A DNA stretch of 64,000 nt from contig JANQHR010000062.1 in NCBI GenBank assembly GCA_028282585.1, positions 6,916-70,915 on the forward strand, read 5' to 3'. A program made the position numbers and the translations under genes. Each line of letters starts with the position of its first letter. Within the stretch, counting starts at the first letter, position 1. Below are positions 13,153 to 51,162 of this stretch, piece by piece. The notes under the pieces were generated by a model that had not been told where the DNA came from, did not search any database, and worked only from the letters and a program-made list of their open reading frames with translations. The stretch comes from Bacteroidales bacterium. Lineage in GTDB: Bacteria; Bacteroidota; Bacteroidia; Bacteroidales; UBA12077.

Positions 13153-13154
13153 AT

Positions 13155-22607: not shown

Positions 22608-24908
22608 TTAAAATAGGTCAACAGAAATATTTTGGATAAAGGCGGTATAAGTAACTTCATTTTCCAAGATGGCTCTTGATAGAATAATAATTACGGGAAT
22701 ATCTTCTCCTTCACTATCCGTAATTTCTATTTCTCTGCGCTCTCCTACTAGTTTATCGGCCTTTGGATCAAGAAATGATTTAGTAAACTCATTATTATAA
22801 TCGGCTTTAGAAAACAATTTTTTTATGTTTCTACCTAATACAACATCACGCTCCAATTTCCAGAGCTCTTCAGCAGCCTTATTAAAGAACTTAACTACAC
22901 CATTTTGATCAATAGTTATAATTGCATCTGCAGCTCCTTCAAGAGTTCTCTCATTACGTAATTTTGCTTGTTCTACTTCTCGAATTTGTTTTTCGGCTTG
23001 AATCTTATTTTGTTTTAATTGCTCTTTTAATTCAGCTCTTGATTTATTTAATTCTCCCTCTTGTTTTTTAAGAAGTTCTGTTTGCTTAAGAGTCTCCATT
23101 TCCATTAGTTTTTCCTTGGTTTCGTCATAACCAATAAAAATCACTTTAGAAATATCATCATACATATCGCGCACCGGCGATAAATTTAATTTTAACCAAA
23201 GGCTTTTATCTTCTTTTGTTCTATGTCTTAATGTACCTTCCCAAGATTCACCCAATGAAACTCTTTCCCAAATTTCACGAAGCTTATTCAAATCTGACTT
23301 ATCAATAAAATCAAAAATTGTTTTTTCTTTTAGCTCGTAAAGAGAAAACTCCATAAGGTCTACAAACTTATTATTACATTCCATTAGATCGCCTGTTGGA
23401 AGAAACTCAACCTTTATACTCGATTGATTTAACGCATTTATTTGTGCTTCATGATCAAGACTAACCTTACGCTGCTCTGTAGTATCAATAGCTAAAAACA
23501 AAATCTTTTCAACGCTTCCATCTTCTCTTCTCATACAAGTATAGGTAGACATTGTCCATAAATCATGTCCCTGTTTGGTTACGTGTTTCATGAATCCTTC
23601 GAAGTGTTTTCCTCCATTTGCAAGGCTATTCCAAAGCTTATTAAACCAATTTCTATCTTTCTCATTTATAAACATCTGGATGTTTTTTCCTTCTACATCC
23701 GAGTTGCTCTCATAACCAAGTTTTTTCAAAAATTTGGTGTTTGCATAAATCAGTGTACCATCATTTTCGTATTCCGCTCTTATTAATGTATGGTTCACTG
23801 CATTTGTGAAAGTTATAAATTTTTCACTTTGTCGGGCAGCTTCTTCTTGCGTAGCTTGCAACTCTTCCATATTTTGCCGCATTTGTTCTTCTTGCGCAGC
23901 AAGTATTTCTGCTTGTTCCTGAGAATCCTTTAAGAGCTTTGCAGTCTTTGTATTAATTTTTACGTTAGAAATTGTTGATCCAATGCTCTCAGCAATCTTC
24001 TCGACAAAATCAACAGTAAATCTTTCTATATTATGAAAGGCACCTATTTCAAGAACACCATGTACCTCATCATTAAATTTCAATGGCACAACCAGTAAAC
24101 AAGTAGGAGTAGCTTCACCTAGTCCCGATGTAATGTGGACATAAGTACTCGGTATGTCTGTCATGTATATTGTTTCTTGCTCCAATATCGCTGCTCCTAT
24201 GGCTCCCTCGCCCCATTCGACTCTTTTATCTGCGAATTTTCTTCTTTCGTAAGCATAACAAGCCGTCATTCTCATATGTTTATCTGCTTCATTTTCATCT
24301 TCAATAATAAATAAAGCACCCTGATTTGCATTTATATATTTTATAAGATTACTTATCAGGTTATATGAAAGTTCTTCAAGATTATCCGTATCTTTTCGTA
24401 AAATCTCACCAAATTTTGCCAATCCTTCTGCAATCCAATTTCTTTGGTTATCTTCGTTACGCCTTTTTTCTTCTTCATCGCGATTCTTTTTTAAATTATC
24501 TCTCAGATCAAGAATTGATTGCCCTAATACGTCGTCTGCTCCTTGAACCTTATAATCGGCATCAATATTACCTAAACGTATTTTTTCGACAAATCGAAAT
24601 ATCTTTTGGTTTTTGTCGAATTCTTTTTTTAAAGAAGAATGTAAAGCCTCTGAAGCTGTTGCGTATTTTTTACTTAAAACATATGCATAAAACGCAAGCA
24701 CAAATGGTGCTAAATCTAAAATTAAGTATACCGGATTATTACGGTGTAGTTCAGCAATCTCAGAAAAACTTACTTTTTTTATAAAAAAATCTACAATTAA
24801 TATAAATAATACCGTTAATAATCCAACAACAAATCCGCTAATTGTATATTTAAAGATTATTGCTTGAGAGTTTCTTTCCTTCATTGATTGCTTTAAATTT
24901 ATAGGCAA
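22608..24908 (-). CDS. Membrane-anchored GAF + multi-PAS sensor protein with no output domain
   Basis: 766 aa. Two N-terminal TM helices, a GAF-like region (...GALFIIEDE...LLVVPLKFNDEVHGVLEIGAF), a Gln/Glu-rich coiled coil, then about three PAS-like repeats. It ends right after the last PAS. Confidence 0.8.
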   Translation of the reverse strand: MPINLKQSMKERNSQAIIFKYTISGFVVGLLTVLFILIVDFFIKKVSFSEIAELHRNNPVYLILDLAPFVLAFYAYVLSKKYATASEALHSSLKKEFDKNQKIFRFVEKIRLGNIDADYKVQGADDVLGQSILDLRDNLKKNRDEEEKRRNEDNQRNWIAEGLAKFGEILRKDTDNLEELSYNLISNLIKYINANQGALFIIEDENEADKHMRMTACYAYERRKFADKRVEWGEGAIGAAILEQETIYMTDIPSTYVHITSGLGEATPTCLLVVPLKFNDEVHGVLEIGAFHNIERFTVDFVEKIAESIGSTISNVKINTKTAKLLKDSQEQAEILAAQEEQMRQNMEELQATQEEAARQSEKFITFTNAVNHTLIRAEYENDGTLIYANTKFLKKLGYESNSDVEGKNIQMFINEKDRNWFNKLWNSLANGGKHFEGFMKHVTKQGHDLWTMSTYTCMRREDGSVEKILFLAIDTTEQRKVSLDHEAQINALNQSSIKVEFLPTGDLMECNNKFVDLMEFSLYELKEKTIFDFIDKSDLNKLREIWERVSLGESWEGTLRHRTKEDKSLWLKLNLSPVRDMYDDISKVIFIGYDETKEKLMEMETLKQTELLKKQEGELNKSRAELKEQLKQNKIQAEKQIREVEQAKLRNERTLEGAADAIITIDQNGVVKFFNKAAEELWKLERDVVLGRNIKKLFSKADYNNEFTKSFLDPKADKLVGERREIEITDSEGEDIPVIIILSRAILENEVTYTAFIQNISVDLF

Positions 24909-25003
24909 CTAAAAATAATAATATTTTCAACAAATCTTCTAAAAATAAGCGACAATTAAAAATCTTTGCTTTAAAAATTAGATTTTATTAATAAACGATT
25001 TTT

Positions 25004-26080
25004 TTAATTAACAGTTTCAAGAAGGTAAACCGAAATTTTTTCTAATGGTAATACTTTATCCGCTGCCTCAAGTTTTATCGCTTCTTTGGGCATACCAAAA
25101 ACAATAGAAGTTTCCTGATCTTGAGCAATCGTTTTAGCTCCTGCTTGCTTCATTTCAAGCAATCCCCTGGCTCCATCATCTCCCATACCTGTCATAATTA
25201 TTCCAATTGCATTAGCACCAGCATATTTCGCTGTTGAACGAAACAATACATCAACCGAAGGGCGATGGCGATTAACAAATGGCCCGCTTTTTACTTCAAC
25301 ATAATATCTTGCACCGCTTCGTTTAACCATAGTATGAAAATTTCCAGGTGCAATTAAAGCTCTGCCTCTGATAATCGAATCTCCGTTTTCGGCCTCTTTT
25401 ACAGTAATTTGGCAGATTTCATTTAATCTATTTGCAAATGATTTGGTAAATTGTTCGGGCATATGTTGCACCATAACAATTCCCGGGCAATCGGCGGGTA
25501 AACCCTGCAAGAAAGTAGTTATGGCTTCTGTACCTCCTGTTGATGCTCCAACTGCTACCACAACTTCAGTTGTTTTTATCATACTGTGTTTACTGGTTGG
25601 AGGAATTATTACGTCAGCTGAATATTTGGGAACTACTTTTATTGATTGTGGTTTGTTAGTTTTACGTCGAATTTTAGCATGAGCAGCACCTTTAACAGCT
25701 TCACAAATTCTAATTTTTGATTCCCGAATAAATTCCTTAGTTGATAAAAAAGGTTTTGTTATAATTTCAACAGCACCATACTCAAGTGCTTTAAATCCGG
25801 TCTCCGTTCCTTCTCCCGTTAAACTTGAAATAACAACTACTGGCATTGGGTGTTGGCTCATAATCTTTTGCAAGAAAGTTAAACCATCCATTCGTGGCAT
25901 TTCTATATCGAGCGTAATTACATCCGGAATCTCTTGTTTTATTTTTTTTGCAGCAACAAAAGGATCTGAGGCCGTGCCCATAACTTCAAGCTCAGGATCA
26001 GAATTAATAATTTCCGTAAGATTTTGACGAACTACAGCAGAATCGTCCACAATTAAAACTCTGATCTTCTTTTTATCCAT
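25004..26080 (-). CDS. cheB: Chemotaxis response regulator protein-glutamate methylesterase CheB
   Basis: 358 aa. Receiver domain (RVLIVDDS...[14 protein letters not shown]) plus methylesterase domain (GASTGG, HMP, GMGDDG). Confidence 0.95.
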
Positions 26081-26126
26081 GCAATATTCGTTTAATTGGT
26101 CTTATGTTAAAATTACAAAAAAACAT

Positions 26127-26609
26127 TTACTTTTTTATTTTCTTAATTTCTCTTTTTACATATCGTTGTTTGATTTCTCCGGAAACTGTATTCATAATAA
26201 TCTTTCGCCCATATTTTCCTCCAACACTCGAGCTAACAATAGGAATTCTCAATTCTTCCAAGGTTTCATGTGCCAATTTAATATTTCTTTCTCCTATTTG
26301 AAAATATTGAGTTTCCGTATCTAAAACTTCACCGCCACCAAAAACTTTAGCAACGATATGGTTCTTTTTGGAGCCAAAAGAAATTATTTTATCCAGTAAT
26401 TTTTCTATTGCTATGTTTCCATATTTTGGAGATGCTAATCCTTCTCCATTCCATAGCGGTAACATATAATGTGACATTCCTCCATACTTTAAGATAGGGT
26501 CCCACATACATACAGCCACACACGAACCTAAAATCGTACTTATGTTATAAGGCTCTTTTGATGCAAAAATTGCAGAAGGATATAAGAAATAAGAAGAAGT
26601 ATTTTCCAT
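26127..26609 (-). CDS. cheD: Chemoreceptor glutamine deamidase CheD
   Basis: 160 aa with the characteristic LGSCVAV catalytic-Cys motif and a GGxxHxMLP region. Confidence 0.9.
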   Translation of the reverse strand: MENTSSYFLYPSAIFASKEPYNISTILGSCVAVCMWDPILKYGGMSHYMLPLWNGEGLASPKYGNIAIEKLLDKIISFGSKKNHIVAKVFGGGEVLDTETQYFQIGERNIKLAHETLEELRIPIVSSSVGGKYGRKIIMNTVSGEIKQRYVKREIKKIKK

Positions 26610-26618
26610 AAAAATTAT

Positions 26619-27527
26619 TTAAAATGTTTCTTTTTCGCCTTCATCATCTTCAAAGAATAGCTCATTACCATCTAATGCAAATCCTTGAGTATCAATTTCT
26701 GATTCGGGAATTGTAACGGTGAATTCAGAACCTTTATCAAGTTCACTTTCAAGTTCAATTTTACCATCAAAAAGATCAATCAGCGCTTTATTCACTGATA
26801 ATCCTAATCCGTGCCCTCTATTTAATGAGTTAATTCCTGAATCAAGTCTTTTAAACCGATCAAAAATGATTTTTTTATTCTCTTCAGATACACCGCAACC
26901 AAAATCTTTTACTGAAATCATTAAGCTTTTATCCACAATCCAAACTTTTAAAATTATCCTGCTTTCATCATCACTAAATTTAATCGCATTAAATAACAGA
27001 TTTGCAATTATTAATCTCAACTTTTCAGCATCTGTTTTAAAATAAAAAGGATTTTCAATGGAAGATTCTATTTTAAAATCTAGTTCAACTTTAATATTCT
27101 TCTTATCTGACTCATAAGTAAATGATTCAACAATACTTTCAACTAATTGTAAGATATCTACATTTAGCACCTCCGGTAAAACTTCTCCAGCTTCCAGTTT
27201 TGCTGCAACAAATATGTTTCTTAACTGAAAATCCAGATTAAATGCTTCTGAATAAATTAACGTAACCATTTTATGCACTTCACTCCAATTTTGTTTCCCA
27301 ACTTTTATAATGTTTTTTGACAATGCCAAAATAGATGCAAAAGGGTTTATAATCTCGTTGGTAATATTTGAGATAAAATGACTTTTTAGGGCTTCAGATT
27401 CTTCGAGTTTTTTATTAACTTCTTTCAGTTCTTTATTGAGTTGTTGAACTTCCAAAAGAGCTTTTTTTGTTTTATCGAAGCGCTTCATTAGTTCTTCGAT
27501 TAGTTCGTGATCTTTTAATTCGCTCAT
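26619..27527 (-). CDS. Soluble histidine-kinase-like protein (HisKA-like + HATPase_c) lacking the canonical phospho-acceptor His
   Basis: 302 aa. The H-box position reads KSHFISNITNEIINPF where kinases have KSxFLANMSHELRTPL, giving Asn57 (nt 27357-27359) in place of His. The N box (NLLFNAIKF), G1 (DFGCGV) and G2 (GHGLGLS) are intact. Confidence 0.8.
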   Translation of the reverse strand: MSELKDHELIEELMKRFDKTKKALLEVQQLNKELKEVNKKLEESEALKSHFISNITNEIINPFASILALSKNIIKVGKQNWSEVHKMVTLIYSEAFNLDFQLRNIFVAAKLEAGEVLPEVLNVDILQLVESIVESFTYESDKKNIKVELDFKIESSIENPFYFKTDAEKLRLIIANLLFNAIKFSDDESRIILKVWIVDKSLMISVKDFGCGVSEENKKIIFDRFKRLDSGINSLNRGHGLGLSVNKALIDLFDGKIELESELDKGSEFTVTIPESEIDTQGFALDGNELFFEDDEGEKETF

Positions 27528-27537
27528 AGTTTTTTAT

Positions 27538-28392
27538 TTAATTTCTTACGAAAATTGTGGGTTTTATTTGCTTTAAAGGTAAATTCATTCCTAAAATAGA
27601 TTCCGAATGTCCGATAAATAAATATCCTCCTGATTTTAATTTTTGACACAATCTATTTAATACCATTTCCTGGGTTTCTCTGTTAAAATAGATCAAAACA
27701 TTTCGACAAAATATCACATCAAAAACATCTGCAACATTATATGATGAATCCATAAAATTTAAACGTTGATATCTTATCTTATCTCTTAATAATTTAACAA
27801 CACGAACAGTTTTGTTGTCTTTATTTTTACTTTTTAAGAAATACCTTTTTTTAATGTTCAGAGGAATTACATTAATCCTATCTTCTTTATAAATTGCTGT
27901 ATTAGCCTGTTGAAGTATTTTTGTTGAAATATCAGTACCTAAAATATCATAATCGAAACCGGAATATTCATATTTAAATTCGTTCAAGGTAATTGCAATT
28001 GTATAAGGTTCTTCACCACTTGAACAACCTGCACTCCAGGCTTTAAAAATGGCTCTTCTTTCCTTTTCTATGAAATCAGGTAAGATTTTATTTCTGAGAA
28101 AATCAAAATGAACCGGTTCTCTGTAAAAATCTGTTTTGTTTGTACTAACAGCATCGAGCATATGAACGATTTCATTTTTTTGTCCCTCATCACTAAAAAC
28201 AAAATCGGCATATTCCTTAAAACTAAGTATTTCTAATTCTCTTAATCGTTTTTGTAAACGACTTTGCAACATAATCTTTTTAATGGGAGGCATTTTAATT
28301 CCCGATTGTTGAAAAACAAATCTACTCAGACGATTAAAATCATCATCTGTCATTCGTGCATTAAAAATTTTATTTAATAAAGGATCCACCAT
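27538..28392 (-). CDS. cheR: Chemotaxis protein methyltransferase CheR
   Basis: 284 aa. FFRE-type region (TDFYREPVHF) and a SAM-binding motif (AWSAGCSSGEEPYTIA). Confidence 0.95.
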   Translation of the reverse strand: MVDPLLNKIFNARMTDDDFNRLSRFVFQQSGIKMPPIKKIMLQSRLQKRLRELEILSFKEYADFVFSDEGQKNEIVHMLDAVSTNKTDFYREPVHFDFLRNKILPDFIEKERRAIFKAWSAGCSSGEEPYTIAITLNEFKYEYSGFDYDILGTDISTKILQQANTAIYKEDRINVIPLNIKKRYFLKSKNKDNKTVRVVKLLRDKIRYQRLNFMDSSYNVADVFDVIFCRNVLIYFNRETQEMVLNRLCQKLKSGGYLFIGHSESILGMNLPLKQIKPTIFVRN

Positions 28393-28412
28393 TTTTTATT
28401 TCAGTTTTAAAA

Positions 28413-28573
28413 GGGGGTGTCCAAAAAGTACAATAGTTAAATCTTGTTCTTATTTTTTACTTTGAGTAACTTTGTGTCTTCTCTGTGGTTCTCTGTGTAA
28501 CAGCCTTTTATAATTATACCACAAAGTTTCGCAAAGCAGGCACAAAGAACACTAAGACTTTTTGGACACCTCC
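28413..28573. repeat. 161-bp inverted-repeat-bounded intergenic element inside the che operon
   Basis: 17-bp terminal inverted repeat: GGGGGTGTCCAAAAAGT (28413-28429) and ACTTTTTGGACACCTCC (28557-28573), with 1 mismatch. The interior is rich in CTTTGTG/CTCTGTG and CACAAAG motifs that can fold into a long imperfect hairpin. No ORF. Confidence 0.6.
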
Positions 28574-28649
28574 TGTTTATTAATCCAAAGAATATAATTA
28601 CTTAACCCTAACCTTTAATTATAAACCCTTTAGACTAACTTGAATTTAA

Positions 28650-30671: not shown

Positions 30672-30755
30672 AGTAATTCACTTTTTAAGGTTAATCCATA
30701 TTGTTTCACATAATTGTTACATTTCACATTCTTATTGAACGTACACAATTAAAAA

Positions 30756-32798
30756 TCAGAAGCTTTCGTATTGATTATCAATCTTTTTATCATTCATATG
30801 CAAATCAATACCGGTCGTTTTATCATTGCTTGCTGTAACGTCTATTTTAGTTTCTTTTGGCTTGTTTTCAGATATCTTAAATTTTTTCTTCTTCTCTCCT
30901 ATTTTAAAATAGGATATGTTTTGCTTAAGTTGTTCTGCCTGGCCTGCAAGTTCCTCTGAACTAGTTGCTAATTCTTCAGAAGCTGCAGCATTTTGTTGAG
31001 TAACCTGATTCAACTGCTGAATTGCGCTATTTACCTGATCTGAACCGGAATTTTGCTCTAAACTTGCGGCAGAAATTTCTTGAACCAGTTTTGCTGTTTT
31101 ATCAATTTCAGGAGTAATCTCTTCCATTCGCTTTGCTACCTCTTCATTTACGGTTACACTTGATTTTGATAATACGTCTATTTCATCAGCTGCTACTTTA
31201 CTTCGTTCTGCGAGTTTTCGAACTTCGTTAGCAACTACAGCAAAGCCTTTTCCATGTTCACCAGCACGAGCTGCCTCTACTGCAGCATTTAACGCTAAAA
31301 TATTAGTTTGGAAAGCTATATCATTTATAATTGATATTTTTTCAGCAATATTGTTAATCGATTTTCTGTTTTCCTGAGCTGCATGCATAACTGCTATCAT
31401 GCCTTCTGCAGCTTTTATAGATATCTTTTCTGTTTGTTGAGCGTTATCCGTATTCTGTTGAATATTTGAAGCCATCTCTTCCATCGAAGAAGAAACTTCC
31501 TCTGCAGAAGATGCCTGCTCACTTGCTCCTTGAGACATTTGTTGAGAATTTGAACTCATTTCCAAACTGGCGCCTGCAATATTGTCAGCGCTCGTTTCAA
31601 CACTTTCAACAATTTCCTGAAGTTTAATAACCATTGAATTTAATGAATTTGCAAGCACTCCTACCTCATCTTCCTGGTCAATATCAATAGTTGCTGTCAA
31701 ATCACCTTCAGAAACTCTTTGTGCAAACTCAACGCCCTTATTTATAGCTTTCGCTACATTTCTAACAACACTGGTAACTATGAAAATAAATATTAATACT
31801 GCAATAACAACTGATGCAAAGACTGTTAATCTTAAGCTCCTTAAATATTTAAAAAGAATCTCTTCATAAAAAGATGCAACTACATATGAATCTATTTCAG
31901 GTATATATTCAAAATATTGAAATTTCCACTTGCCTTCATCCGTTTCGGGCCATTTATATCTTGATTTACCTTTCCTATCCTCATTGGCTTTAATCTGTTT
32001 ATAAAAAGTAAATTCAGTACCTTCCTTACCTTCGTCTGTTGGGTGAACAATAAAAGTACCATCAGCACTAATTAAAAATGGGTAACCTGTTTCAAAATAA
32101 ATTTTATTATCGAAAACCCCTTTTAAACTAATTAAATTTTTTTCCTTTATACCTACATATAATATTCCTTGTACTTCTCCATTAATCCAAATTGGTTCAT
32201 AAGCCGTAAGATAATAATCATCAACAACAAAAGCTCTACCTCTGTATGTTTGCCCTGATTCAACTGCCTGAATTACAGGTGAATTGTTTGGGATATAAGT
32301 ACCAATAGCTCTTTCTCCATTTTCTTTTAATACATTTGTTGATATTCTTAAATATCCACCAGGGATTTTCTGAAATATGGTAGAAGTAGCACCTGTCATC
32401 TCTTGTACCTTATCAACAAAGGAATAATTATTGTAGATTCTTTCACCTCCAATTATAAAGTCTTTGATTGTAATTTGTGTAGCATGTTTAGATATTTGAT
32501 TTATCGCAGTAACCTGAGAAAATGTATCTTCCATAGAAGGCTCACCTAAGCCCTGAAACATTTCATGTGCCGTTTTTAAAGCATAATTTACTCTATTTTG
32601 CCTTTCATTCAACTGAACTTTAATAATGCTAACTAAATCACCAAGTTGTTCATACATTCTTATATCCGCATCTTCAGTGATTCTAGTTTTAGTATCTTTA
32701 TAAGTTAAAATACCAAGTGTAGAGATCACAATAACAGTTGCTAAACCTAATATAAGGTTTAGTCGAAGCCCTATTTTTAAATTGTTTAATGATTTCAT
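30756..32798 (-). CDS. Methyl-accepting chemotaxis protein, Cache_3/Cache_2-type sensor
   Basis: 680 aa with the same membrane topology but a different periplasmic domain (...[19 protein letters not shown]...RAIGTYI...). The HAMP and signalling domains are nearly identical to the neighbouring MCP. The C-terminus is ...NQYESF. Confidence 0.95.
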
Positions 32799-32849
32799 AT
32801 CTCTAGTTTTTTTACTAGTTATAATTCTTAGTTTGTTGTTGTTAGGAGT

Positions 32850-33365
32850 TTACTCTTTGTTTTCTATCTTTTTTTCTCCTTCCTGAGTTTTTTCTTTAAC
32901 AAGTACAACTTCATCTACCGAGAATACTTTATCCATATCTAAAAGCATAATAAATTTCTCGTCTATCTTTGCCATTCCATAAATAAAATCCGATTTATAT
33001 TTGCTTCCGATACCCGGAGATGGCTGAATTTGATTATCAGCAATTTCAAGAACCGCCTGAACCGAATCAACCAGGGCTCCAACCTGTACCTCATCGCCCT
33101 CGATATTTACTTCCATTACTATTATACATGTGTTAGTGGTATATTCGGTAGGTGTCATACCGAATTTTATTCTTGTATCAACTACTGGTAAAACCGTACC
33201 TCTAAGATTGATAACTCCTTTCATATATTCTGGCGATTTCGGAACTTCTGTAATTTTTGTCATCTCTAAAATATTGAGAACTTTACTTACGTGAGCAGCA
33301 AATTCTTCCTCGCCTAAATTAAATGATAGGAAAGAGTTAACTTTTTCTATTGTTTCTTTACTCAT
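32850..33365 (-). CDS. cheW: Chemotaxis coupling protein CheW
   Basis: 171 aa single CheW-like domain (...GVINLRGTVLPVVD.R..FG...). Confidence 0.9.
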   Translation of the reverse strand: MSKETIEKVNSFLSFNLGEEEFAAHVSKVLNILEMTKITEVPKSPEYMKGVINLRGTVLPVVDTRIKFGMTPTEYTTNTCIIVMEVNIEGDEVQVGALVDSVQAVLEIADNQIQPSPGIGSKYKSDFIYGMAKIDEKFIMLLDMDKVFSVDEVVLVKEKTQEGEKKIENKE

Positions 33366-33374
33366 AATTGTCTC

Positions 33375-35438
33375 CTATTTTGATTCTGTTTTTAGATTAT
33401 CTTTTGAAAATTGTAATATCATTTTGTTAGTATCCATTACCAATGCGACTGTCCCATCACCAAGAATTGTAGCACCCGAGATAATCTCCTGATTTTTAAA
33501 CAATTTACCTAGTGCCTTTAAAACAGCTTGATATTCTCCAACTACTTCATCCACAACAATTCCTATTTTTTTGTCTTCATAACTTACAACAATTATTTGT
33601 TCATGCTCTTCTTTATTATTAGGAAGATTAAATTCTTCCCGTAAATAATAAAACGGAATTCGTTCTCCATCAAGAACAATTAAGTTATTAAATTTATTTA
33701 CTACACTTTCCTGGTCGGTAGAATATATTTTGCCAACAACAGAAAGTGGAATAATATAATGGTTATCGGAAATTTTAACTAGTAAGCCATCGATAATGGA
33801 TAATGTTAGTGGTAATTTTATTGTAATTGTAGTACCTTCATTAATTTCTGAATCAACTTCAACTTCACCCCTAACTTCAGCAAGTTTTCGTTTAACTACA
33901 TCCATACCAACCCCTCTGCCTGATACATCAGTTACGTTCTTGGCCGTAGAAAAACCAGGTTCAAATAATAGGTCAAAAATTTCCTTACGGGATAATTCTG
34001 CATCTTTACTTATTAAGCCTTTTTCAACTCCCTTTAATCTTATTTTTTCCGGATCAATTCCGGCACCATCATCTTTAATTTTTATATGAACATTAGTTCC
34101 TGAATAGTATGCTTTTAAAAGAATCGTACCTTGTTCGGGTTTACCTGATTTAATTCTTTCATCAGGTGACTCAATACCATGATCAATACAATTTCTTAAA
34201 ATATGTAATAACGGATCAGTTAATGTTTCGATAATGGTTTTATCTAATTCTGTTTCTGCACCTTCTGCTATAAATTTTACACTTTTATTTAATTCATTCG
34301 AAAGGTCTCGAACTAATCTTTGAAAACGGGTTAACATCGTTTCGATTGGAACTAAAACAATATCAAACGCATTATCTCTTAATTGTCGGGTTATTTTTTG
34401 CACATTTTCCGCTATAGAAACCAGTTCCGAACTTCCTGAGTTTTCAGCATATAGGCTTAAGCGGGCCTGCGTAGTTACAAGTTCACTTACCAGGTTCATC
34501 AAATTGTCCAGTTTTATAGATGAAACCCGAATACTTGATATAATATTTTCCTTTACACTAGGCGCATTTGTAAATCTTTTACTAACATCATCTACTTGCT
34601 CGTCTGATATTTTTTGCTCAGCATATTTCTTAATGATCGTTTGAATTTCTAATAACCCAACATCGTTTTTAGATAAAGCAAGATTTGATATTTCTTGCAT
34701 AATATTTTCGTTTTGAACGATATTATGATCAACAATCTCGTTAATCTCAAGCTTACAATCATCTTCAACAAAAATGAAAACATCTGATATTGAATTTACG
34801 TCTTCTGAAGTTGCCAAAATAGCTTCCCAGTATACATAACATCTGGTTATATCAATATTTTCAGAATCAGGCACTTTATTAAAATGAGAAAACACTTTAC
34901 AATCACCTAACCCATGTAATTCATCAATTAAGAACAATGGGTTCGTACCATCATTAAAAATATAATCGTTGGGCTCGAAATATATATAATAACTCCGTAT
35001 CCCGGAAGATTCTTTTTCATACTCCCCTTTTTCTTCCCGAATATTATTTTTATTGTCGTCGTCAATTATTTTTTTGATTTGCACAACCAGTTCGGTGTGT
35101 CTGTTTTTTGTCTGTTGCGAACTTAAATCAGGATCAGATAAAAGAGTTTTAAGATGATCAACAGATGCTAACGTAACATCAAGTAAATTTCTTGTGATTT
35201 TTAATTTACCATTTCGGACTAAATCATAAATATTTTCCAAATCATGCGTGAATTCACTTAATTTGGCAAATCCAAACATGGCACCACCACCTTTAAGTGA
35301 ATGCATATCCCTGAAAACACTCTCAATAATTTCTTTATTTTCCGCATCATTCTCTAAAGCAAGAAGAGATTGTTCAAGGTTTTCAGTCTTTTCAGCTGCC
35401 TCTTCAAGAAATTTACTTCGAAATTTATCTATATTCAT
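33375..35438 (-). CDS. cheA: Chemotaxis histidine kinase CheA
   Basis: 687 aa. Hpt domain (FRDMHSLKGGGAMFGF), dimerisation region, HATPase (HILRNCIDHGIE, DDGAGID, GRGVGMDVV) and a C-terminal CheW-like domain. Confidence 0.95.
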   Translation of the reverse strand: MNIDKFRSKFLEEAAEKTENLEQSLLALENDAENKEIIESVFRDMHSLKGGGAMFGFAKLSEFTHDLENIYDLVRNGKLKITRNLLDVTLASVDHLKTLLSDPDLSSQQTKNRHTELVVQIKKIIDDDNKNNIREEKGEYEKESSGIRSYYIYFEPNDYIFNDGTNPLFLIDELHGLGDCKVFSHFNKVPDSENIDITRCYVYWEAILATSEDVNSISDVFIFVEDDCKLEINEIVDHNIVQNENIMQEISNLALSKNDVGLLEIQTIIKKYAEQKISDEQVDDVSKRFTNAPSVKENIISSIRVSSIKLDNLMNLVSELVTTQARLSLYAENSGSSELVSIAENVQKITRQLRDNAFDIVLVPIETMLTRFQRLVRDLSNELNKSVKFIAEGAETELDKTIIETLTDPLLHILRNCIDHGIESPDERIKSGKPEQGTILLKAYYSGTNVHIKIKDDGAGIDPEKIRLKGVEKGLISKDAELSRKEIFDLLFEPGFSTAKNVTDVSGRGVGMDVVKRKLAEVRGEVEVDSEINEGTTITIKLPLTLSIIDGLLVKISDNHYIIPLSVVGKIYSTDQESVVNKFNNLIVLDGERIPFYYLREEFNLPNNKEEHEQIIVVSYEDKKIGIVVDEVVGEYQAVLKALGKLFKNQEIISGATILGDGTVALVMDTNKMILQFSKDNLKTESK

Positions 35439-35803
35439 TATCTTAATACTTTTTTAAGTGCTGCAATTAGTTTGGCAGGTACAAATGGTTTAATAATCCA
35501 TCCGGTTGCTCCAGCTTCCTTGGCTTCCATTTTTTTAGAAGCCTGAGACTCAGTAGTAAGAAATAAGATTGGAATTCGCTTATATTGATCCGTTGCGCGA
35601 ACGCTTTTTATAAACTCAATACCATTCATTTCAGGCATGTGAAGGTCGGTTATTATTAAATCGATATGTGAACCGTCCAGAAATTTTAAAGCGTCTTTTC
35701 CATCCACTCCGACTAATACATCGTAACCCTCATTTTTAAGAGTGAAGCTTACAACTTCACGTATACTTTCTGAGTCATCGACAATTAAGATAGTTTTACT
35801 CAT
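35438..35803 (-). CDS. cheY: Chemotaxis response regulator CheY
   Basis: 121 aa single receiver domain (ILIVDDS, DLIITDLHMPEMNG, T at LTTES, K at IIKPF). The stop overlaps the cheA start by 1 nt. Confidence 0.9.
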   Translation of the reverse strand: MSKTILIVDDSESIREVVSFTLKNEGYDVLVGVDGKDALKFLDGSHIDLIITDLHMPEMNGIEFIKSVRATDQYKRIPILFLTTESQASKKMEAKEAGATGWIIKPFVPAKLIAALKKVLR

Positions 35804-35816
35804 AATAATATCAATA

Positions 35817-36134
35817 TTATTTAATTATTTTTGTAATATCTGAATTACTGAACAGAACATTCTGTTCTTCATTTAAATCAATGTTTAAAATCAAATTCTT
35901 TTTAGTTTTTTCAGCAGTTTTTTGAATTGATTTTATCAACTGAACAAAGGTTAAATCCATATTCTTTATTGACTTTCCAATAATTTCGATAGTTTCGTAT
36001 TTGTTTACTGCATTTATTATATCATTTTTAATATCCTCAATTGAATATATGGTAAGCTCATCAATTAAATTGATTTCTACTTTACTTTCTCCTTTTTTTC
36101 TTGAGGGTTTAATCTGAATTTTCTTTGTACTCAT
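35817..36134 (-). CDS. Small STAS-like domain protein (anti-sigma-antagonist fold)
   Basis: 105 aa. The pattern L.G.LTI..I..IK..I.......IEI.......MDLTFVQLI...QK.A......L.L resembles STAS/SpoIIAA. Assigned by eye only. Confidence 0.5.
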   Translation of the reverse strand: MSTKKIQIKPSRKKGESKVEINLIDELTIYSIEDIKNDIINAVNKYETIEIIGKSIKNMDLTFVQLIKSIQKTAEKTKKNLILNIDLNEEQNVLFSNSDITKIIK

Positions 36135-36146
36135 AAGATCGTTATT

Positions 36147-37961
36147 TTAGAAAAACTCTATTTCATCATCTTCTTTAATATCAAAATCTATTTCAGCTTC
36201 TTCTCCTTTAGCAACTTTGTCATGAATGTTATGCTCCGTTTCCATGGTATAATATTGCTTAATATTTTCCAGATTCTCTTCTCTTGAAATTCCGTCAAGC
36301 TCCTTATTTAACTTAAGTTTATAATTCACTGTATTTAACTCTGTAATAATTTCCTGAATTACCTTTTCGAAATACTCATAGTATTTAATTCTTGAAATAG
36401 AATTTTTAATATTTTTAATTACTACTTTGCTATCGTTGTTATTATTTTGTAGAAGCGTTTCAATCTCATTCCCGGAAGCTTTCAACAAGTCAATTTGAGT
36501 TCTTAGTTCTGAAAAATTAGTTTCACTCAATAAACCTTGATCTGTTTTATTTACAAATCCTTCAATATTATCTTTTAATGTAAACAAATAGTCGTATAAT
36601 GAATTAAGTTTTTGTGAATTATCTTTTGTTTCTTTCAGCAAATTAATGAATTGGCTATTTGCCTTTTTTAGGTTTGAATCACTATTAAAAAGTTCCTCAA
36701 AATATTTTTTTGATTCGTTCAGCAATTCTTCTAACTTAAAAGATGATTTTCTAAAGTTTTCAATAATGTTCTCTGACTGAAGGTACTTATCGTGAATATT
36801 ATTTAGTTCTGCATCAAGAATCTTAGTTTGATGGTTATAATTGTCGATAAATAAGTTTGCTTTATTAATATAAGAATCAATTCGTTCAAACATTCTATTA
36901 TAGTTAACTTTTCCGTATGAATAAACTCTTTGAGACTTATATGTAATTTCCTGGATATTATCTCCGATTAGAATAAAATTATCAATAATAACCTCTATTG
37001 CGGATTGATACTCTTTATTTGCCTGTATTAACTGTGCAGCTTGTAATCCGGAAATATCTCGTATTCTTAAAAAACATTTTACTTTTTCATTTAGTTTATT
37101 TGCTTCTAAATTGGTTTCATTAAACTCAACAAGTTCCTTAATTAGATCTTTATGCGTATTCTGGATATGCTCCATCTTTTGTTTTATAATGTCCTGATAT
37201 TGAAGCTTTTTTACTATTTCCGTGTTACTATTTTCTAAACTTCCTATTTTTTCTTTTATATTAGGAATTAAGTTTTTGTTATCCTCATTTTTTTTATCGA
37301 TCAGTTCAATGCTTGATTGAATTTCTTTTAATAAGCTTTCAAGATTTACTTCATGTAATCCATTTAAATCCTTAATTCTTTTGTAAGAACTTTTAGCAAT
37401 TTTACTTAACTGATTAAATGAGTTAATAATATTATCGGTAATAAGCTTAATACTTTCAATTAACTTTTCGGTTTGCAAATAAATATTTTCCAAATATTCG
37501 TTTTCTGATCCTTTGCTATATGAAAGGGATACTTTTAAATTTGCAATTAAGTAATTTAAGCTCATTAAATTTTGGCTATAACTTTTGATTGGGAAAAAAA
37601 TATGTCTTATATGATTAGATAACTTCTCTAACTGATCAGATATAACAACGATTCTATAATCCAGAACTTCAAACTGGATCTTCAATTTTTCGTATAGCTC
37701 ATTAATTATTTGATAAAGATTATTGTTTTTATTAATATTTGAAGTATTACAAACTACTCCAACATTATTAGTTATTCGGTTAGACTGGCTATAAATTTCT
37801 TTATAACTTTTGTTCAACTGCAAAAAATCCTCTGCTGACTTATTATGTAATGATATTAATCTCTTATCTATTTTTGTAAATAGATCTGTAATATCCTTAA
37901 CCGAATAAGTTTTCAGCAGTGAATTTAGATGTATAGTAAATTCTTCTTCTCGTTCAGACAT
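36147..37961 (-). CDS. 604-aa soluble coiled-coil protein of the che operon with a CheZ-like [FY]QDxxxQ motif
   Basis: Long N/K/E/L-rich helical protein with no TM segment. Contains KKLQYQDIIKQKMEHIQ (Asp257, Gln261; nt 37161-37206) and an acidic C-terminal tail ...EEAEIDFDIKEDDEIEFF. Confidence 0.6.
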   Translation of the reverse strand: MSEREEEFTIHLNSLLKTYSVKDITDLFTKIDKRLISLHNKSAEDFLQLNKSYKEIYSQSNRITNNVGVVCNTSNINKNNNLYQIINELYEKLKIQFEVLDYRIVVISDQLEKLSNHIRHIFFPIKSYSQNLMSLNYLIANLKVSLSYSKGSENEYLENIYLQTEKLIESIKLITDNIINSFNQLSKIAKSSYKRIKDLNGLHEVNLESLLKEIQSSIELIDKKNEDNKNLIPNIKEKIGSLENSNTEIVKKLQYQDIIKQKMEHIQNTHKDLIKELVEFNETNLEANKLNEKVKCFLRIRDISGLQAAQLIQANKEYQSAIEVIIDNFILIGDNIQEITYKSQRVYSYGKVNYNRMFERIDSYINKANLFIDNYNHQTKILDAELNNIHDKYLQSENIIENFRKSSFKLEELLNESKKYFEELFNSDSNLKKANSQFINLLKETKDNSQKLNSLYDYLFTLKDNIEGFVNKTDQGLLSETNFSELRTQIDLLKASGNEIETLLQNNNNDSKVVIKNIKNSISRIKYYEYFEKVIQEIITELNTVNYKLKLNKELDGISREENLENIKQYYTMETEHNIHDKVAKGEEAEIDFDIKEDDEIEFF

Positions 37962-37982
37962 GTTAATTCAAATAAAGAAATA

Positions 37983-38363
37983 TTATGCTTTTATTGTTAA
38001 CGCATTACCTATTTTCTCAAGAAATTCCGGAATATTAATAGGTTTTTCAATCACATCAATAGCTCCTAATTCTTTTGCCATCAATCTATTTTCTTTATTG
38101 GCAAAAGCTGTAACAATAATTATAGGTATATCTTTAAAAATTCCATTTGACTTTAGTCTTTTCAATAAATCAAATCCGTTTTCATTCGGCATAAGCAGAT
38201 CTAACAAAATTAGATTAGGAATGCTTCTTGTTAAAGAAACAAGTGCCTCTTTAGCACTATAAGCCTTTTCTACATTACATCCAGCATCTTCCAGAATAGC
38301 CTCTAACAAAACCAAATTAGTTTCTGAATCATCCACAATAAGTATGTTATTTCCTTTTATCAT
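37983..38363 (-). CDS. Single-domain response regulator (receiver only), first gene of the che operon
   Basis: 126 aa (ILIVDDSE, LILLDLLMPNENG, IIVTA, EKP). Confidence 0.9.
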   Translation of the reverse strand: MIKGNNILIVDDSETNLVLLEAILEDAGCNVEKAYSAKEALVSLTRSIPNLILLDLLMPNENGFDLLKRLKSNGIFKDIPIIIVTAFANKENRLMAKELGAIDVIEKPINIPEFLEKIGNALTIKA

Positions 38364-38559: not shown

Positions 38560-39243
38560 ATGATTACAAACAAACCTAATGTTCTTAACACTCTTTTACC
38601 GGAAGGTGATATTTTAACAAATCAACAAACTGAATTAATTAAATCGAAAGGTAAAATAATTTCTTTTCAAAAAAAGGATGTTATTTTTAGACAAGGTACG
38701 ATTACTTCACACGTAATGTTTTTGGAATCGGGTCTTGTTAAACTTTCCAGGGAAGGAAAAAATGAAAGATCTTTAATAATTAAAATCGCTAAAGCGGGTG
38801 AATTTATTGGGTTAATATCGATGTTTGATAATGAGATTTACCAATATTCTGCTACCGCTATTGAAGATGCTAAAGTATTTTTTATTGATTTTAAAATCTT
38901 TAATACAATTCTATTAGAAAATGGAAGCTATACCGTTTATCTGTTAAAAGAAATTGCAAAAGACAATTTAAGTATTTTTGATCGTATTATTTCCCAGTAT
39001 CATAAGCAACTACCTGGTAAGATTGCCGATATTATTTTATACTTTTCTACTCACATTTATAATTCTGAAACTTTTGAATTTCCCATAACACGTAATGAAT
39101 TAGCAGAACTAGCCGGTACCACAAAAGAAAGTTTTATCCGTACTCTTGCCGAATTTAAAAATGATAAAATAATTGAAATTCAAGGTAAGCTGATAAAAAT
39201 TAATAGCATAGATATTATAAAAACTCTTAGCAGACTTGGATAA
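38560..39243 (+). CDS. Crp/Fnr-family transcriptional regulator
   Basis: 227 aa. cNMP-binding-like beta-barrel (F.QG......MFLESGLVKLS....G....I.I...GEFIG) plus a C-terminal HTH (TRNELAELAGTTKESFIRTLAEF). Confidence 0.85.
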   Translation: MITNKPNVLNTLLPEGDILTNQQTELIKSKGKIISFQKKDVIFRQGTITSHVMFLESGLVKLSREGKNERSLIIKIAKAGEFIGLISMFDNEIYQYSATAIEDAKVFFIDFKIFNTILLENGSYTVYLLKEIAKDNLSIFDRIISQYHKQLPGKIADIILYFSTHIYNSETFEFPITRNELAELAGTTKESFIRTLAEFKNDKIIEIQGKLIKINSIDIIKTLSRLG

Positions 39244-49308: not shown

Positions 49309-49352
49309 TTTCTTTTTAATTTAATTAATGATCTAATTACCAGGCAGCTTGA

Positions 49353-51131: not shown

Positions 51132-51162
51132 TTTATAAATTTTAGGATTCGAGTGGAAATAA

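Follow-up and report, generated by a model that had tools for sequence, protein, structure and literature searches.

The gene cluster at positions 22608-38363, from a Bacteroidales bacterium not yet cultured, appears to encode a chemosensory pathway of F8-like type. To this reading, with the accessory roles proposed below, we give an even chance. One accessory of the operon probably switches the signal off.

Gene content and layout of the cluster

All 13 co-directional genes of the original prediction were found as open reading frames on the minus strand, and their domains were assigned with Pfam. From the 5′ end, the operon begins with RR1, a stand-alone CheY-like receiver (37983-38363; Response_reg, E = 4e-27), followed by cc604, an all-helical protein of 604 aa (36147-37961), p105, a single-domain STAS protein (35817-36134), CheY (35438-35803; Response_reg, E = 1.5e-28), CheA (33375-35438; P1 or Hpt, dimerisation, HATPase, and CheW-like domains), and a single-domain CheW (32850-33365; E = 1e-37). 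Neither cc604 nor p105 had a Pfam match. Two Cache receptors come next: MCP1 (30756-32798), with Cache3-Cache2, HAMP, a 34-heptad (34H) signalling domain, and a linker of about 40 residues before its QYESF end, and MCP2 (28650-30671), with dCache, HAMP, a 34H signalling domain, and a DYENF end. The remaining genes encode (i) the methyltransferase CheR (27538-28392; CheR and CheR_N); (ii) HATP (26619-27527), a soluble HisKA-type transmitter core without the phospho-His, matched by HATPase_c only; (iii) the deamidase CheD (26127-26609); (iv) the receiver-methylesterase CheB (25004-26080); and (v) a membrane sensor without output domain (22608-24908). For the sensor, two hydrophobic N-terminal segments and a HAMP-like stretch were read from the sequence, ahead of one GAF and three PAS domains, as predicted; it probably starts at ATG 24884 rather than at the listed TTG.

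Intergenic gaps measured 9-95 bp, with the sole exception of 257 bp between MCP2 and cheR. The predicted 1-nt overlap of cheY and cheA was confirmed, nucleotide 35438 belonging to both genes. Also as predicted, a Crp-family regulator (38560-39243, plus strand) and a third receiver, RR3 (39243-39614, plus strand), are transcribed divergently from the operon.

Conservation in relatives and in other phyla

A host within Bacteroidota was supported, because the best CheA matches came from Bacteroidales metagenome-assembled genomes (MAGs), at 56-71% identity, and the flanking genes were syntenic. In these nearest relatives the entire gene set is kept in the same order, with CheY showing the highest conservation of all its proteins (75-91% identity; CheA, 55-71%). 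A complete Che core with accessory genes in a Bacteroidales genome was upheld. The accessory genes stay beside cheA in the relatives, so that a lack of conservation falls away as an objection to the original prediction.

The block of receiver, 604-aa protein, STAS protein, CheY, and CheA is not specific to Bacteroidales, as it also occurs in Desulfobacterota, Geobacter, Nitrospirota, Ignavibacteria, and Kuenenia. The seemingly odd extra genes of the operon are conserved components of a widespread pathway type. RR1 retains the DD, D55, T, and K of a receiver and is a candidate phosphate sink or second output; in other phyla as well, the gene of the 604-aa family has a receiver gene immediately upstream. 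The Crp-RR3 pair is kept at its position in nine loci (L001-L004, L006, L007, L010, L075, and L082). The GAF-PAS sensor gene was found in eight (L002, L003, L004, L007, L009, L010, L013, and L075), with an invariant C-terminal ISVDLF in the seven of them in which the C-terminus was covered.

CheA, receptors, and pathway class

CheA carries its phospho-site, H46, in an HSLKG motif and scored 400-434 bits against the NCBIfam CheA models, under their equivalog cut-offs. The cytoplasmic domains of the two receptors aligned without gaps (72% identity over 325 residues), and each arm measures about 119 residues from tip to end. Compared with Tsr (36H), MCP1 has a single 7-residue deletion per arm; the heptad count of both receptors is 34H. 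Their terminal pentapeptides are NWETF-like, with a cross-phylum consensus of [DE][FY]E[KNR][FY].

Receptors of 34H with a pentapeptide have been assigned to class F8, a nominally flagellar class that is sister to the ancestral F7 (PMC11253619, PMC7184735, PMC9321776). The 'Type 2 E. coli-like' clusters of Geobacter combine such receptors with cheD and unknown ORFs, without cheZ (PMC2577667). We consider the present pathway F8-like, a class read from receptor length and the literature rather than from class HMMs. The accessories had been taken as marks of a pathway controlling alternative cellular functions (ACF), a reading that these receptors do not bear out, their type being linked in the literature to F8 and not to Wsp-like ACF systems. 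The block is also common to lineages in several other phyla, and a STAS protein at the same cluster position, CheS, belongs to the flagellar system of S. meliloti, where it binds CheA (PMC12654446). In sum, the original interpretation stood for the core, its conservation, and the STAS and His-less assignments, and called for revision in the ACF-type reading and in the view of the 604-aa protein, which is no orphan.

The STAS protein p105

The AF2 model of p105 (pLDDT 79) matched SpoIIAA and RsbV in Foldseek (E = 1e-5, TM 0.65-0.72). Its family profile matched RsbV at 5e-5, with D60-L61 opposite D-S(P), and its homologues carry Pfam STAS or STAS_2. The protein therefore has the anti-sigma-antagonist fold with an invariant Leu in place of the phospho-acceptor Ser, and because of this Leu it presumably cannot be a phosphorylation-driven partner switch. 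In 52 of 67 loci, CheY/CheA are preceded by an ORF related to p105. By position and STAS fold, p105 may be likened to S. meliloti CheS as its positional counterpart.

The 604-aa protein cc604

cc604, which had no match in NCBIfam either, proved to belong, as a diverged member, to a family that counts at least 1099 representative clusters (E ≤ 1e-3). Its AF2 model is all-helical (pLDDT 78). Pfam MCPsignal matched 31 of 37 cross-phylum family members, whose consensus describes soluble proteins with two receptor-tip motifs in tandem and no sensor domains; among PDB sequences, the cc604 profile matched T. maritima MCPs best. In the Bacteroidales members the two tip motifs have decayed so far that Pfam no longer detects them, and the central helix is still invariant. 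Judged from these sequences, the family, which is large and has no name, seems to derive from soluble double-tip MCPs, and cc604 is one of its decayed members. In 44 of 67 loci, a gene of this family is found immediately ahead of those for the STAS protein, CheY, and CheA; it was present in 45 of 57 loci with an adjacent CheY and in 1 of 10 without (p = 6e-5).

Across phyla, no columns are invariant except Q254, D257, and Q261 of the motif Q254-Y-Q-D257-I-I-K-Q261 (37179-37202), which aligns with F141-Q-D143-L-T-G-Q147 of CheZ. Gap-free alignments of the catalytic helix placed D143/Q147 of CheZ on the Asp/Gln pair of the family (D257/Q261 in cc604), and when E. coli CheZ was used as query against the locus ORFs, most best matches were family members. 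Pfam CheZ matched 7 of 37 members (best E = 1.6e-5, all under the gathering score), leaving cc604 itself and the mini forms of the family unmatched. In hhalign, the family against CheZ exceeded 30 of 30 column shuffles (P = 0.003) at a probability below 10%. The helix similarity is thus statistically weak, recurrent across the family, and gap-free in most members.

The C-terminal block (36150-36254) consists of YYTMETEH, an acidic linker, and a terminal EIEFF, with Y571, T572, E576, H580, E602, and F604 invariant. Residues 577-604, which include the linker, were modeled with a pLDDT below 50, as expected for a flexible linker. A YTMxxER motif and an xELF/xEFF tail also occur in cross-phylum and mini forms; the latter (210-235 aa) have no hairpin and retain just the helix together with YTMxxER and the tail with its Phe.

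No Pfam match to CheZ, CheC, or CheX was found in the cluster proteins or in the scanned neighbouring ORFs of the window (the whole 64-kb stretch of DNA analysed). CheT, a helical DxxxQ protein without sequence similarity to CheZ, is a proven CheY phosphatase (PMC12654446). We propose cc604 as a putative CheY~P phosphatase or array-associated regulator. Its motif could serve packing or partner binding instead of catalysis, because the C-terminal arms of the parent MCPs also carry conserved Gln-rich helices.

HATP and CheD

HATP comprises a coiled coil, DHp, and CA, and an acidic tail with a final ETF. It aligned end to end with the DHp and CA core of HK853 (residues 34-276, E = 4e-27), with ITNEIINP (motif at 27345-27359) opposite ISHELRTP. 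Asn57 occupies the phospho-His position, so that HATP was rightly called His-less; the acceptor position is Asn in 15 of 15 homologues, Geobacter included. E58, N61, and the ATP-binding boxes are intact. Wherever HATP is present, its gene lies directly upstream of that of CheD. The CheD of the cluster shares 56-58% identity with the HATP-linked CheD of the Geobacter loci L031 and L040 and 29-30% with their other CheD, which identifies the HATP-linked copy as its ortholog.

In the HisKA motif H-E/D-x-x-T/N, the T/N is the sole residue needed exclusively for phosphatase activity (PMC3510030). HATP is accordingly proposed to be a putative kinase-dead receiver phosphatase paired with CheD. Counting against this role, its ATP-binding site is retained in full, although a pure phosphatase has no strict need of one.

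Proposed pathway and alternatives

The domain content indicates that two transmembrane Cache 34-heptad receptors couple via CheW to a complete CheA, which is predicted to phosphorylate CheY and the CheB receiver, and probably also RR1. Adaptation would be provided by CheR, CheB, and CheD, with CheR and CheB presumably tethered by the receptors' xYExF pentapeptides. p105 may act like CheS, binding CheA and biasing which receiver is served, and the GAF-PAS membrane protein may supply cytoplasmic input. cc604 would descend from a soluble two-tip receptor whose tips decayed in this lineage, leaving the central helix with its CheZ-type D257/Q261 and a tail that is flexible, acidic, and Phe-terminated. 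This tail would dock on CheY~P or RR1~P and accelerate dephosphorylation, taking over the role of the missing CheZ, CheC, or CheX. HATP, presumably unable to autophosphorylate at the usual position and retaining N61 and the nucleotide pocket, would be a second receiver phosphatase or a regulator coupled to CheD, comparable to CheC-CheD in Bacillus. Both phosphatase roles are inferred. Flagella are not known from Bacteroidales; should they be absent from this host too, CheY would act on something other than a flagellar motor.

cc604 could instead be purely structural, a DosM-like double-hairpin remnant with a scaffolding or capping role in the receptor array, its conserved helix serving as a binding or packing surface; the signal would then be ended by RR1 as phosphate sink and by intrinsic autodephosphorylation of CheY. 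We find this conceivable and somewhat unlikely. The MCPsignal matches, the two tip motifs of the consensus, and the T. maritima MCPs as best PDB matches suit it, as do the description of DosM-type sensor-less receptors with two signalling domains as scaffolds (PMC9321776) and the two stand-alone receivers, which recall the S. meliloti sink design (PMC12654446). However, it is the CheA/CheW-contacting tips that decayed in the Bacteroidales proteins while the central helix stayed invariant, the mini forms keep helix, YTMxxER, and tail without a hairpin, and the CheZ-like helix recurs in the family. In addition, class F9, to which DosM belongs, uses triple CheW and 44H receptors (PMC9321776), whereas CheW is single-domain here and the receptors are transmembrane and 34H. 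Ordinary flagellar chemotaxis, in which the host or a recent ancestor has flagellar genes elsewhere and CheY binds FliM, seems improbable to us. The same block occurs in Geobacter, Ignavibacteria, and Nitrospirota, all of which include flagellated members, and a 64-kb window is compatible with distant flagellar genes. The 34H receptors also fall in an 'F' class (PMC9321776), although what F8 systems do is a matter of debate even for Pseudomonas, which is flagellated (PMC11253619). As originally noted, no flagellar gene lies nearby: none was found among the scanned ORFs of the window, and in a syntenic relative of 4.6 Mb none of the Pfam-assigned genes across 21.8 kb is flagellar. Gliding and T9SS genes were likewise not found among the other scanned ORFs of the window. 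Bacteroidales, Cytophagales, and Prolixibacteraceae are generally known as non-flagellated, being gliders or non-motile.

Transcriptional control by partner switching, with HATP phosphorylating the STAS protein and thereby freeing a sigma factor or another regulator, is very unlikely in our view, even though p105 is closest in fold to SpoIIAA and RsbV and HATP, a GHKL ATPase, keeps its nucleotide boxes and lacks the acceptor His. STAS and RsbW-like modules are reported to adjoin the Shewanella Che1 system, itself linked to RpoS control (PMC9855816), and the window contains an ECF sigma factor gene (12580-13152), though about 13 kb from the operon. Against this stand the invariant Leu of p105 and the HK853-like HisKA core of HATP, which is not of RsbW/SpoIIAB type and matches Pfam HATPase_c_2 well under threshold; moreover, most loci have the STAS gene and few have HATP, which is always next to CheD and not next to the STAS gene. 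We give hardly any credence to a split sensor kinase, of which the GAF-PAS protein and HATP would be two halves passing phosphate to receivers in parallel to CheA. The former has input domains only and the latter a transmitter core only, and both genes are kept in the closest relatives, but the acceptor His is absent from every HATP homologue examined, HATP occurs without the GAF-PAS gene in nine loci (L011, L014, L016, L022, L024, L031, L040, L041, and L082), and cheD and cheB stand between the two genes.

Comparison with known systems

Within the F8-like pathway favoured here, the pairing of HATP with CheD has a parallel in CheC, a phosphatase in tight genetic linkage to CheD in Bacillus and Thermotoga; the fold of HATP is unrelated to that of CheC, and its interaction with CheD is putative. 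Kinase-dead, phosphatase-competent HisKA proteins likewise have E-x-x-N after the acceptor position (PMC3510030). These are laboratory mutants, whereas the His-to-Asn replacement of HATP occurs in nature and is conserved. CheS of Sinorhizobium meliloti and Agrobacterium is also a small STAS-only protein in a che cluster with two CheY-like receivers (PMC12654446). The p105 gene lies directly upstream of cheY-cheA; the likeness is one of position and STAS fold, and binding of CheA by p105 is putative.

cc604 resembles CheZ of E. coli (PDB 1KMI) and H. pylori and CheT of S. meliloti, which likewise have a DxxxQ helix. The shared traits are a helical bundle, Asp and Gln four apart within F/Y-Q/H-D-I/L-T/I-x-Q, an acidic flexible linker, a C-terminal peptide with final Phe, and a gene beside cheY. 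Unlike CheZ, cc604 is three times longer, apparently of receptor-hairpin origin, equipped with the additional conserved YTMxxER block, and without significant Pfam CheZ match. DosM (V. cholerae cluster I) is soluble and sensor-less with two tandem tip motifs, like the cross-phylum relatives of cc604; in cc604 itself the signalling tips are degenerate.

As a whole, the cluster shares 34H receptors with NWETF-like pentapeptides, the presence of cheD, the absence of cheZ, and internal ORFs of unknown function with Geobacter Type 2 clusters and P. syringae cluster II (PMC2577667, PMC11253619). L031 and L040 also contain a gene of the 604-aa family, cheY-cheA, and the trio of receiver, His-less core, and CheD. 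In contrast to these systems, the present host belongs to Bacteroidales, MCP signalling domains are no longer recognisable in the 604-aa protein, and a GAF-PAS membrane sensor and a divergent Crp/receiver pair have been added.

Gene content and surroundings of the operon

ORF listing combined with Pfam scans confirmed almost entirely the 13-gene minus-strand order of the original prediction (from position 38363 down to 22608), and the operon finding as a whole proved real and well described. The genes encode, in order, a receiver (RR1, 37983..38363), a 604-aa protein (36147..37961), a 105-aa STAS protein (35817..36134), CheY, CheA, CheW, a Cache3-Cache2 MCP (MCP1), a dCache MCP (MCP2), CheR, a kinase-like core (HATP, 26619..27527), CheD, CheB, and a GAF-PAS protein. 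Neither the 604-aa nor the 105-aa protein has a Pfam match, HATPase_c is the sole Pfam domain of the 302-aa HATP, and the GAF plus triple-PAS protein (766 aa) carries two hydrophobic segments at its N-terminus. Divergent from the operon are the genes of a Crp-family regulator and of a third stand-alone receiver. Spacing between operon genes is 9-95 bp, with the exception of 257 bp between MCP2 and cheR; cheY and cheA share a single base at 35438.

According to Pfam, CheA comprises the Hpt histidine (H46, motif HSLKG), dimerization, ATPase, and CheW-like domains, and it is accompanied by CheW, MCPs, and CheY. The catalytic residues of the receivers are intact, and the methylation adaptation module is complete in Pfam terms (CheR with CheR_N, CheB_methylest with a receiver, and CheD). 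Conservation within the cluster peaks at CheY (75-91% identity in relatives vs 55-71% for CheA), as might be expected if several partners constrain it.

Elsewhere in the window, the scanned ORFs encode, among others, RNase Y, a TonB-dependent receptor, an ECF sigma factor, a CHAT-TPR protein, NuoF/NuoG-like proteins, rubrerythrin, and an SNF2 helicase. No flagellar, gliding, or pilus genes were found among them, and the remark that no flagellar gene was in sight holds for the scanned ORFs of the 64-kb window. The window gave no tRNA or Rfam matches, and sigma-70 promoter and terminator scans stayed at background level.

The MCP2-cheR gap holds a nested inverted repeat (28409-28577; outer arms of 21 nt, 90% complementary; inner arms of 32 nt, 75% complementary), which occurs once in the window, has no Rfam match, and folds as minus-strand RNA at -51.2 kcal/mol (z = -5.0 vs shuffles). 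Since the MCP-cheR spacing is just 124 bp in L002, a CheA-related comparison locus, the repeat could represent either an inserted element or an intercistronic RNA structure. A 916-aa TPR and CHAT (caspase-like) protein, which has no relation to the Che operon, is encoded on the minus strand at 15794-18544, adjoining the ECF sigma factor and neighboring ORFs (12580-14775). At 45616-51681 lies an anaerobe-type module resembling electron bifurcation; a 1230-aa 2Fe-2S/GltD-like/molybdopterin oxidoreductase fusion is followed by NuoF-like and NuoE-like genes, with rubrerythrin close by, and the module is syntenic with L082, a locus in a circular 4.6-Mb relative.

Receptors and class of the system

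Aligned with E. coli Tsr, a 36H receptor, MCP1 lacks exactly seven residues in each hairpin arm; the arms measure ~119 residues each, and the MCP2-MCP1 alignment is gap-free. Both receptors are therefore 34H, which supplies the heptad count that had been proposed as a check. Beyond a linker of ~40 residues they end in QYESF (30759-30773) and DYENF (28653-28667), and a [DE][FY]E[KNR][FY] terminus also occurs on MCPs of related loci in other phyla; these tails look like CheR/CheB-tethering pentapeptides. Together with HATP (KETF, 26622-26633), the 604-aa protein (IEFF, 36150-36164), and the GAF-PAS protein (VDLF, 22611-22625), 5 of the 13 cluster proteins have acidic-x-Phe ends, vs Phe ends in 3 of 30 other window ORFs. 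The Phe tails are conserved in relatives, where the ISVDLF of the GAF-PAS protein is nearly invariant, and their common form suggests a shared docking mode.

Receptors of class 34H go with class F8 (PMC11253619, PMC7184735, PMC9321776), which shares one clade with epsilon- and most delta-proteobacterial F7 systems; in F7 clusters of stage 1-2, cheY is present and cheZ is absent (PMC7184735). The window system fits an F8-like assignment, a label taken from receptor class and gene content. Clusters of the ACF (Wsp-like) class contain a non-motility output domain or regulator (e.g. receiver-GGDEF), and their receptors are typically 40H. All four receivers of the window system (three stand-alone, one in CheB) lack an effector output domain, and no GGDEF, EAL, or HD-GYP domain was detected in the cluster by Pfam; ACF membership was rejected for want of a Wsp/ACF-type output domain and because the receptors are 34H. 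Class F9 is characterized by DosM with two intact signaling domains and by a triple-domain CheW (PMC9321776), and it was likewise rejected, as the CheW found here has one domain in 171 aa and no MCPsignal domain was detected in the 604-aa protein. The earlier view of an ACF-like oddity of Bacteroidota stands only in part: the Che core with its accessories is confirmed, and the receptors are of the type paired with F8. The system belongs to a widespread, poorly understood F8-like lineage, of which the 'accessories' are typical.

Conservation in relatives

In a CheA scan covering one genome per GTDB species, the closest relatives were Bacteroidales and Bacteroidota MAGs (56-71% identity), in agreement with the earlier impression that the host looks like a Bacteroidota. 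Next came a Chlorobiota-labelled record and more Bacteroidota, namely Lentimicrobiaceae, Vicingaceae, Sunxiuqinia, and Prolixibacteraceae, as well as the cultured Cytophagales Parachryseolinea, Dawidia, and Fulvivirgaceae JP3-4. The nearest CheAs outside Bacteroidota, at 40-47% identity, come from records labelled Syntrophobacteraceae, Geobacteraceae, Nitrospirota, Ignavibacteria, Spirochaetaceae, and Kuenenia, among others. The exact window sequence lies on an NCBI contig of 71.9 kb and is also present in the Logan assembly of SRR20820736. A search of the literature on Che systems in Bacteroidota/Bacteroidetes returned nothing specific.

Conservation was mapped by tblastn of all window proteins against 80 CheA-related loci (designated L001, L002, etc.). 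Within the limits of their contigs, the closest relatives repeat the arrangement of all 15 genes, the divergent Crp and receiver genes among them. Every gene type is present in L002 and L010; L003 is complete except for the end of the GAF-PAS gene; L004, L007, and L075 are complete except for one MCP between cheW and cheR; and L001, L005, L006, L008, and L009 are contig-limited fragments with unchanged order. The CheY-CheA-CheW-MCP-CheR-HATP-CheD-CheB order reaches Cytophagales and Prolixibacteraceae. The accessory genes are therefore kept beside cheA in relatives, and the lack of such conservation, which the original prediction had named as an argument against itself, is ruled out. In the circular metagenomic genome (L082), flanking genes are also shared with the window. 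The same locus has a 239-aa ORF between cheW and MCP (L082:15181-15900), with neither a Pfam match nor a counterpart in the window.

A receptor-derived family with a CheZ-like helix

The 604-aa protein is modeled as all helices (pLDDT 78), and Pfam and other profile scans gave no family match. A word-based search retrieved 104 homologs, nearly all 'hypothetical', with Bacteroidales, Marinilabiliales, Bacteroidota, and Williamwhitmania as named sources; their alignment contains the conserved blocks LQY[QH]DII[RK]QKMEHIQ, RIRDIAGLQAAQLIxANKEYQSAIE, IKYYDYFEKVI, and YYTMxTEHxIHD, and it closes with IEFF or LELF. When the central 121 residues were used as an HMM in an exhaustive search, 1099 representative proteins matched at E<=1e-3. 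The top 150 of these 1099 are mostly ~570-640 aa long, with some shorter, apparently partial entries, and the full-length members among them carry the block near residues 205-360. In 44 of 67 CheA-related loci (those with enough upstream sequence), a family gene is the direct upstream neighbor of the STAS gene, cheY, and cheA; these 44 loci span Bacteroidota, Syntrophobacteraceae, Geobacter, Nitrospirota, Ignavibacteria, and Kuenenia. Loci with an adjacent CheY ortholog contained the family in 45 of 57 cases, vs 1 of 10 without (Fisher p=6e-5, a value that ignores phylogeny).

The cross-phylum consensus contains two receptor-tip motifs, IESARLG....GF..LA and LIALNA..KA...G.EG..LGVLA, and Pfam MCPsignal was matched by 31 of 37 cross-phylum members. 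Given both, the family appears to descend from soluble receptors with two signaling tips, an architecture known from DosM (PMC9321776). Both tips have decayed below detection in Bacteroidales members. A PDB fold search with the 604-aa model was uninformative, returning generic long coiled coils only (SMC, Rad50, cohesin). The full-length family profile against PDB sequences gave mostly coiled-coil noise, topped by T. maritima MCPs owing to the MCP ancestry of the family.

Across phyla, just three alignment columns (Q254, D257, and Q261) are invariant, and the latter two lie on a model helix spanning residues 255-278. The family helix [FY]-[HQ]-D-[IM]-[TI]-[RK]-Q resembles the CheZ active-site F-Q-D143-L-T-G-Q147, and its Asp/Gln pair (i, i+4), on a long helix within a helical bundle, aligns with CheZ D143/Q147. 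Pfam CheZ (PF04344) did not match the 604-aa window protein even at E<=10; its matches to 7 of the 37 cross-phylum members (E 1.6e-5 to 5e-3) stayed below the 30.7-bit cut-off. When E. coli CheZ (sequence verified against 1KMI) was compared with all locus ORFs, family members made up most of the best weak matches, and where the catalytic helix aligns gap-free, D143/Q147 fall on the Asp/Gln pair of the family. A first hhalign comparison of the full profile with CheZ contained a 4-residue gap (probability 0.1%). The core-only profile aligned ungapped and scored above 30 of 30 column-shuffled controls (P=0.003), at a probability of only ~9%. The CheZ profile had gained almost no depth because the 120 listed matches are 71-100% identical to E. 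coli CheZ (enterobacterial where named). Derivation of the motif from the ordinary MCP 'VTQQNAA' helix was rejected, as the MCP-homologous segment of the L027 protein ends ~20 residues before the motif.

Two kinds of unusual members were noted. Mini forms of ~210-235 aa, neither with a Pfam match, occur in L022:8588-9316 (Fulvivirgaceae bacterium JP3-4) and L030:3262-4065 (a Bacteroidota MAG). Their genes lie shortly before the STAS gene, cheY, and cheA, and of the family features the proteins retain just the QYxDxxxQ helix, the YTMxxER block, and an xFF C-terminus. No mini forms were found in L012, L014, L016, L018, L024, and L041. In Nitrospirota and Thermodesulfovibrionia, the proteins L027:7797-9143, L052:6697-7923, and L028:6445-7128 have a single, genuine MCP signaling domain (E 1e-29 to 1e-34) to which the family core, with an MQFQDITRQ helix, is fused C-terminally. 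These gave the best sub-threshold Pfam CheZ matches and hence look like receptor-phosphatase-type fusions.

We favor a candidate role of the 604-aa protein as CheZ-like phosphatase, because of the resemblance of the invariant motif, the mini forms, the co-occurrence with CheY, the lack of Pfam CheZ, CheC, or CheX matches among the cluster proteins and neighboring ORFs scanned, and the precedent of CheT, a helical DxxxQ protein that acts as CheY phosphatase despite lacking sequence similarity to CheZ (PMC12654446). Its C-terminus is acidic, conserved, and low-confidence in the model, and ends in ...EIEFF; this Phe-ending tail would serve as a putative receiver-docking peptide. The rival explanation, that the protein is purely structural and a DosM-like remnant, carries substantial weight.

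The STAS protein and the His-less kinase core

Close homologs of the 105-aa protein carry Pfam STAS or STAS_2. Its AlphaFold model (pLDDT 79) matched SpoIIAA/RsbV (Foldseek E 1e-5, probability 1.0), with a TM of 0.65-0.72 to 1H4Y and 6M36, and the family profile matches RsbV (5e-5) and SpoIIAA by sequence. Model comparison and profile thus both identify a STAS fold, as the label 'STAS-like' had proposed. D60-L61-T62 lie opposite the D-S-S/T of antagonists, and no phosphorylatable Ser follows the conserved Asp; in its place stands Leu61, invariant in 16 homologs. The phospho-Ser of SpoIIAA is S58. With the family HMM, a small matching ORF was located immediately 5' of cheY or cheA in 52 of 67 loci.

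HATP residues 34-276 align with T. maritima HK853 (E 4e-27) and form a DHp and CA core with intact N, G1, F, and G2 boxes (NLLFNAIKFS, DFGCG, FDRF, GHGLGL). HK853 'ISHELRTP' lies opposite HATP 'ITNEIINP', so that the phospho-acceptor His of H-E/D-x-x-T/N is replaced by Asn57. Asn occupies this position in all 15 homologs examined, Geobacter included, which bears out the description as 'His-less'; conservation does not extend to the His of an upstream 'KSHF'. HATP keeps E58 and N61, the latter four residues past the acceptor position, where the T/N of HisKA is the only residue needed exclusively for phosphatase activity (PMC3510030). The C-terminus has a conserved acidic F-x-x-D-G-N-E-L-F-F-[DE]... 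and a terminal ETF-type tail. The HATP gene is always directly upstream of cheD. Two Geobacteraceae loci, L031 and L040, have two cheD per cluster, one after cheR and the other after a receiver and a His-less core. The window CheD shares 56-58% identity with the HATP-following Geobacter copy and ~30% with the other; judged by these identities, it is orthologous to the second, HATP-linked copy.

We read HATP as a putative kinase-dead protein that acts on receivers as phosphatase or regulator, in functional coupling with CheD; the ATP site it retains would be compatible with other roles too. HATP and the STAS protein are unlikely to form a partner-switching pair, because the STAS protein has no phospho-Ser, the kinase subtype is wrong, and the two genes are distributed differently. 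That HATP and the GAF-PAS protein constitute a split kinase is also unlikely, given that the His is absent and that the core is found without a GAF-PAS partner in many loci.

Discussion

The main interest of the operon lies in a receptor-derived, candidate CheZ-like family, in a His-to-Asn core tied to CheD, and in the output of the pathway in a lineage not known as flagellated. To our knowledge, F7-ancestral/F8-type Che systems have no known phosphatase, and their outputs are mostly unknown. With its CheZ-like Asp/Gln helix and its gene position directly ahead of the STAS gene, cheY, and cheA, the conserved 604-aa family provides a concrete, testable phosphatase candidate; the CheD-linked kinase core with its natural His-to-Asn exchange provides a second. 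We know of no flagella in the Bacteroidales lineage, and this setting raises the question of what a full methylation-adapting array controls there. Cultured carriers of parts of the system (Geobacter, and Fulvivirgaceae bacterium JP3-4 with its mini form) make experiments feasible.

A broader combined reading is conceivable, although we rate it as rather doubtful in its entirety. The 604-aa family (at least 1099 representative clusters, from 210-aa mini to 700-aa double-hairpin forms) would be an unrecognized class of CheY~P phosphatases that evolved from chemoreceptor hairpins, perhaps as source or sister of CheZ, and that supplies the missing signal termination in related cheZ-less systems of several phyla. 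In Bacteroidales it would act alongside a naturally kinase-dead HisKA phosphatase coupled to CheD, steering a non-flagellar target, e.g. gliding or T9SS-linked behavior.

In its logic, the HATP-CheD pair can be likened to CheC-CheD. The characterized counterpart of the STAS protein is CheS of S. meliloti and Agrobacterium, likened by its STAS-only form and che-cluster location; CheS binds CheA and alters how CheA handles its two CheYs (PMC12654446). As a whole, the window system fits the Geobacter 'Type 2 E. coli-like' clusters of Tran et al., which have 34H receptors, pentapeptides, cheD, and unexplained extra ORFs, lack cheZ, and, as was pointed out in 2008, need 'a CheZ-independent mechanism' (PMC2577667).
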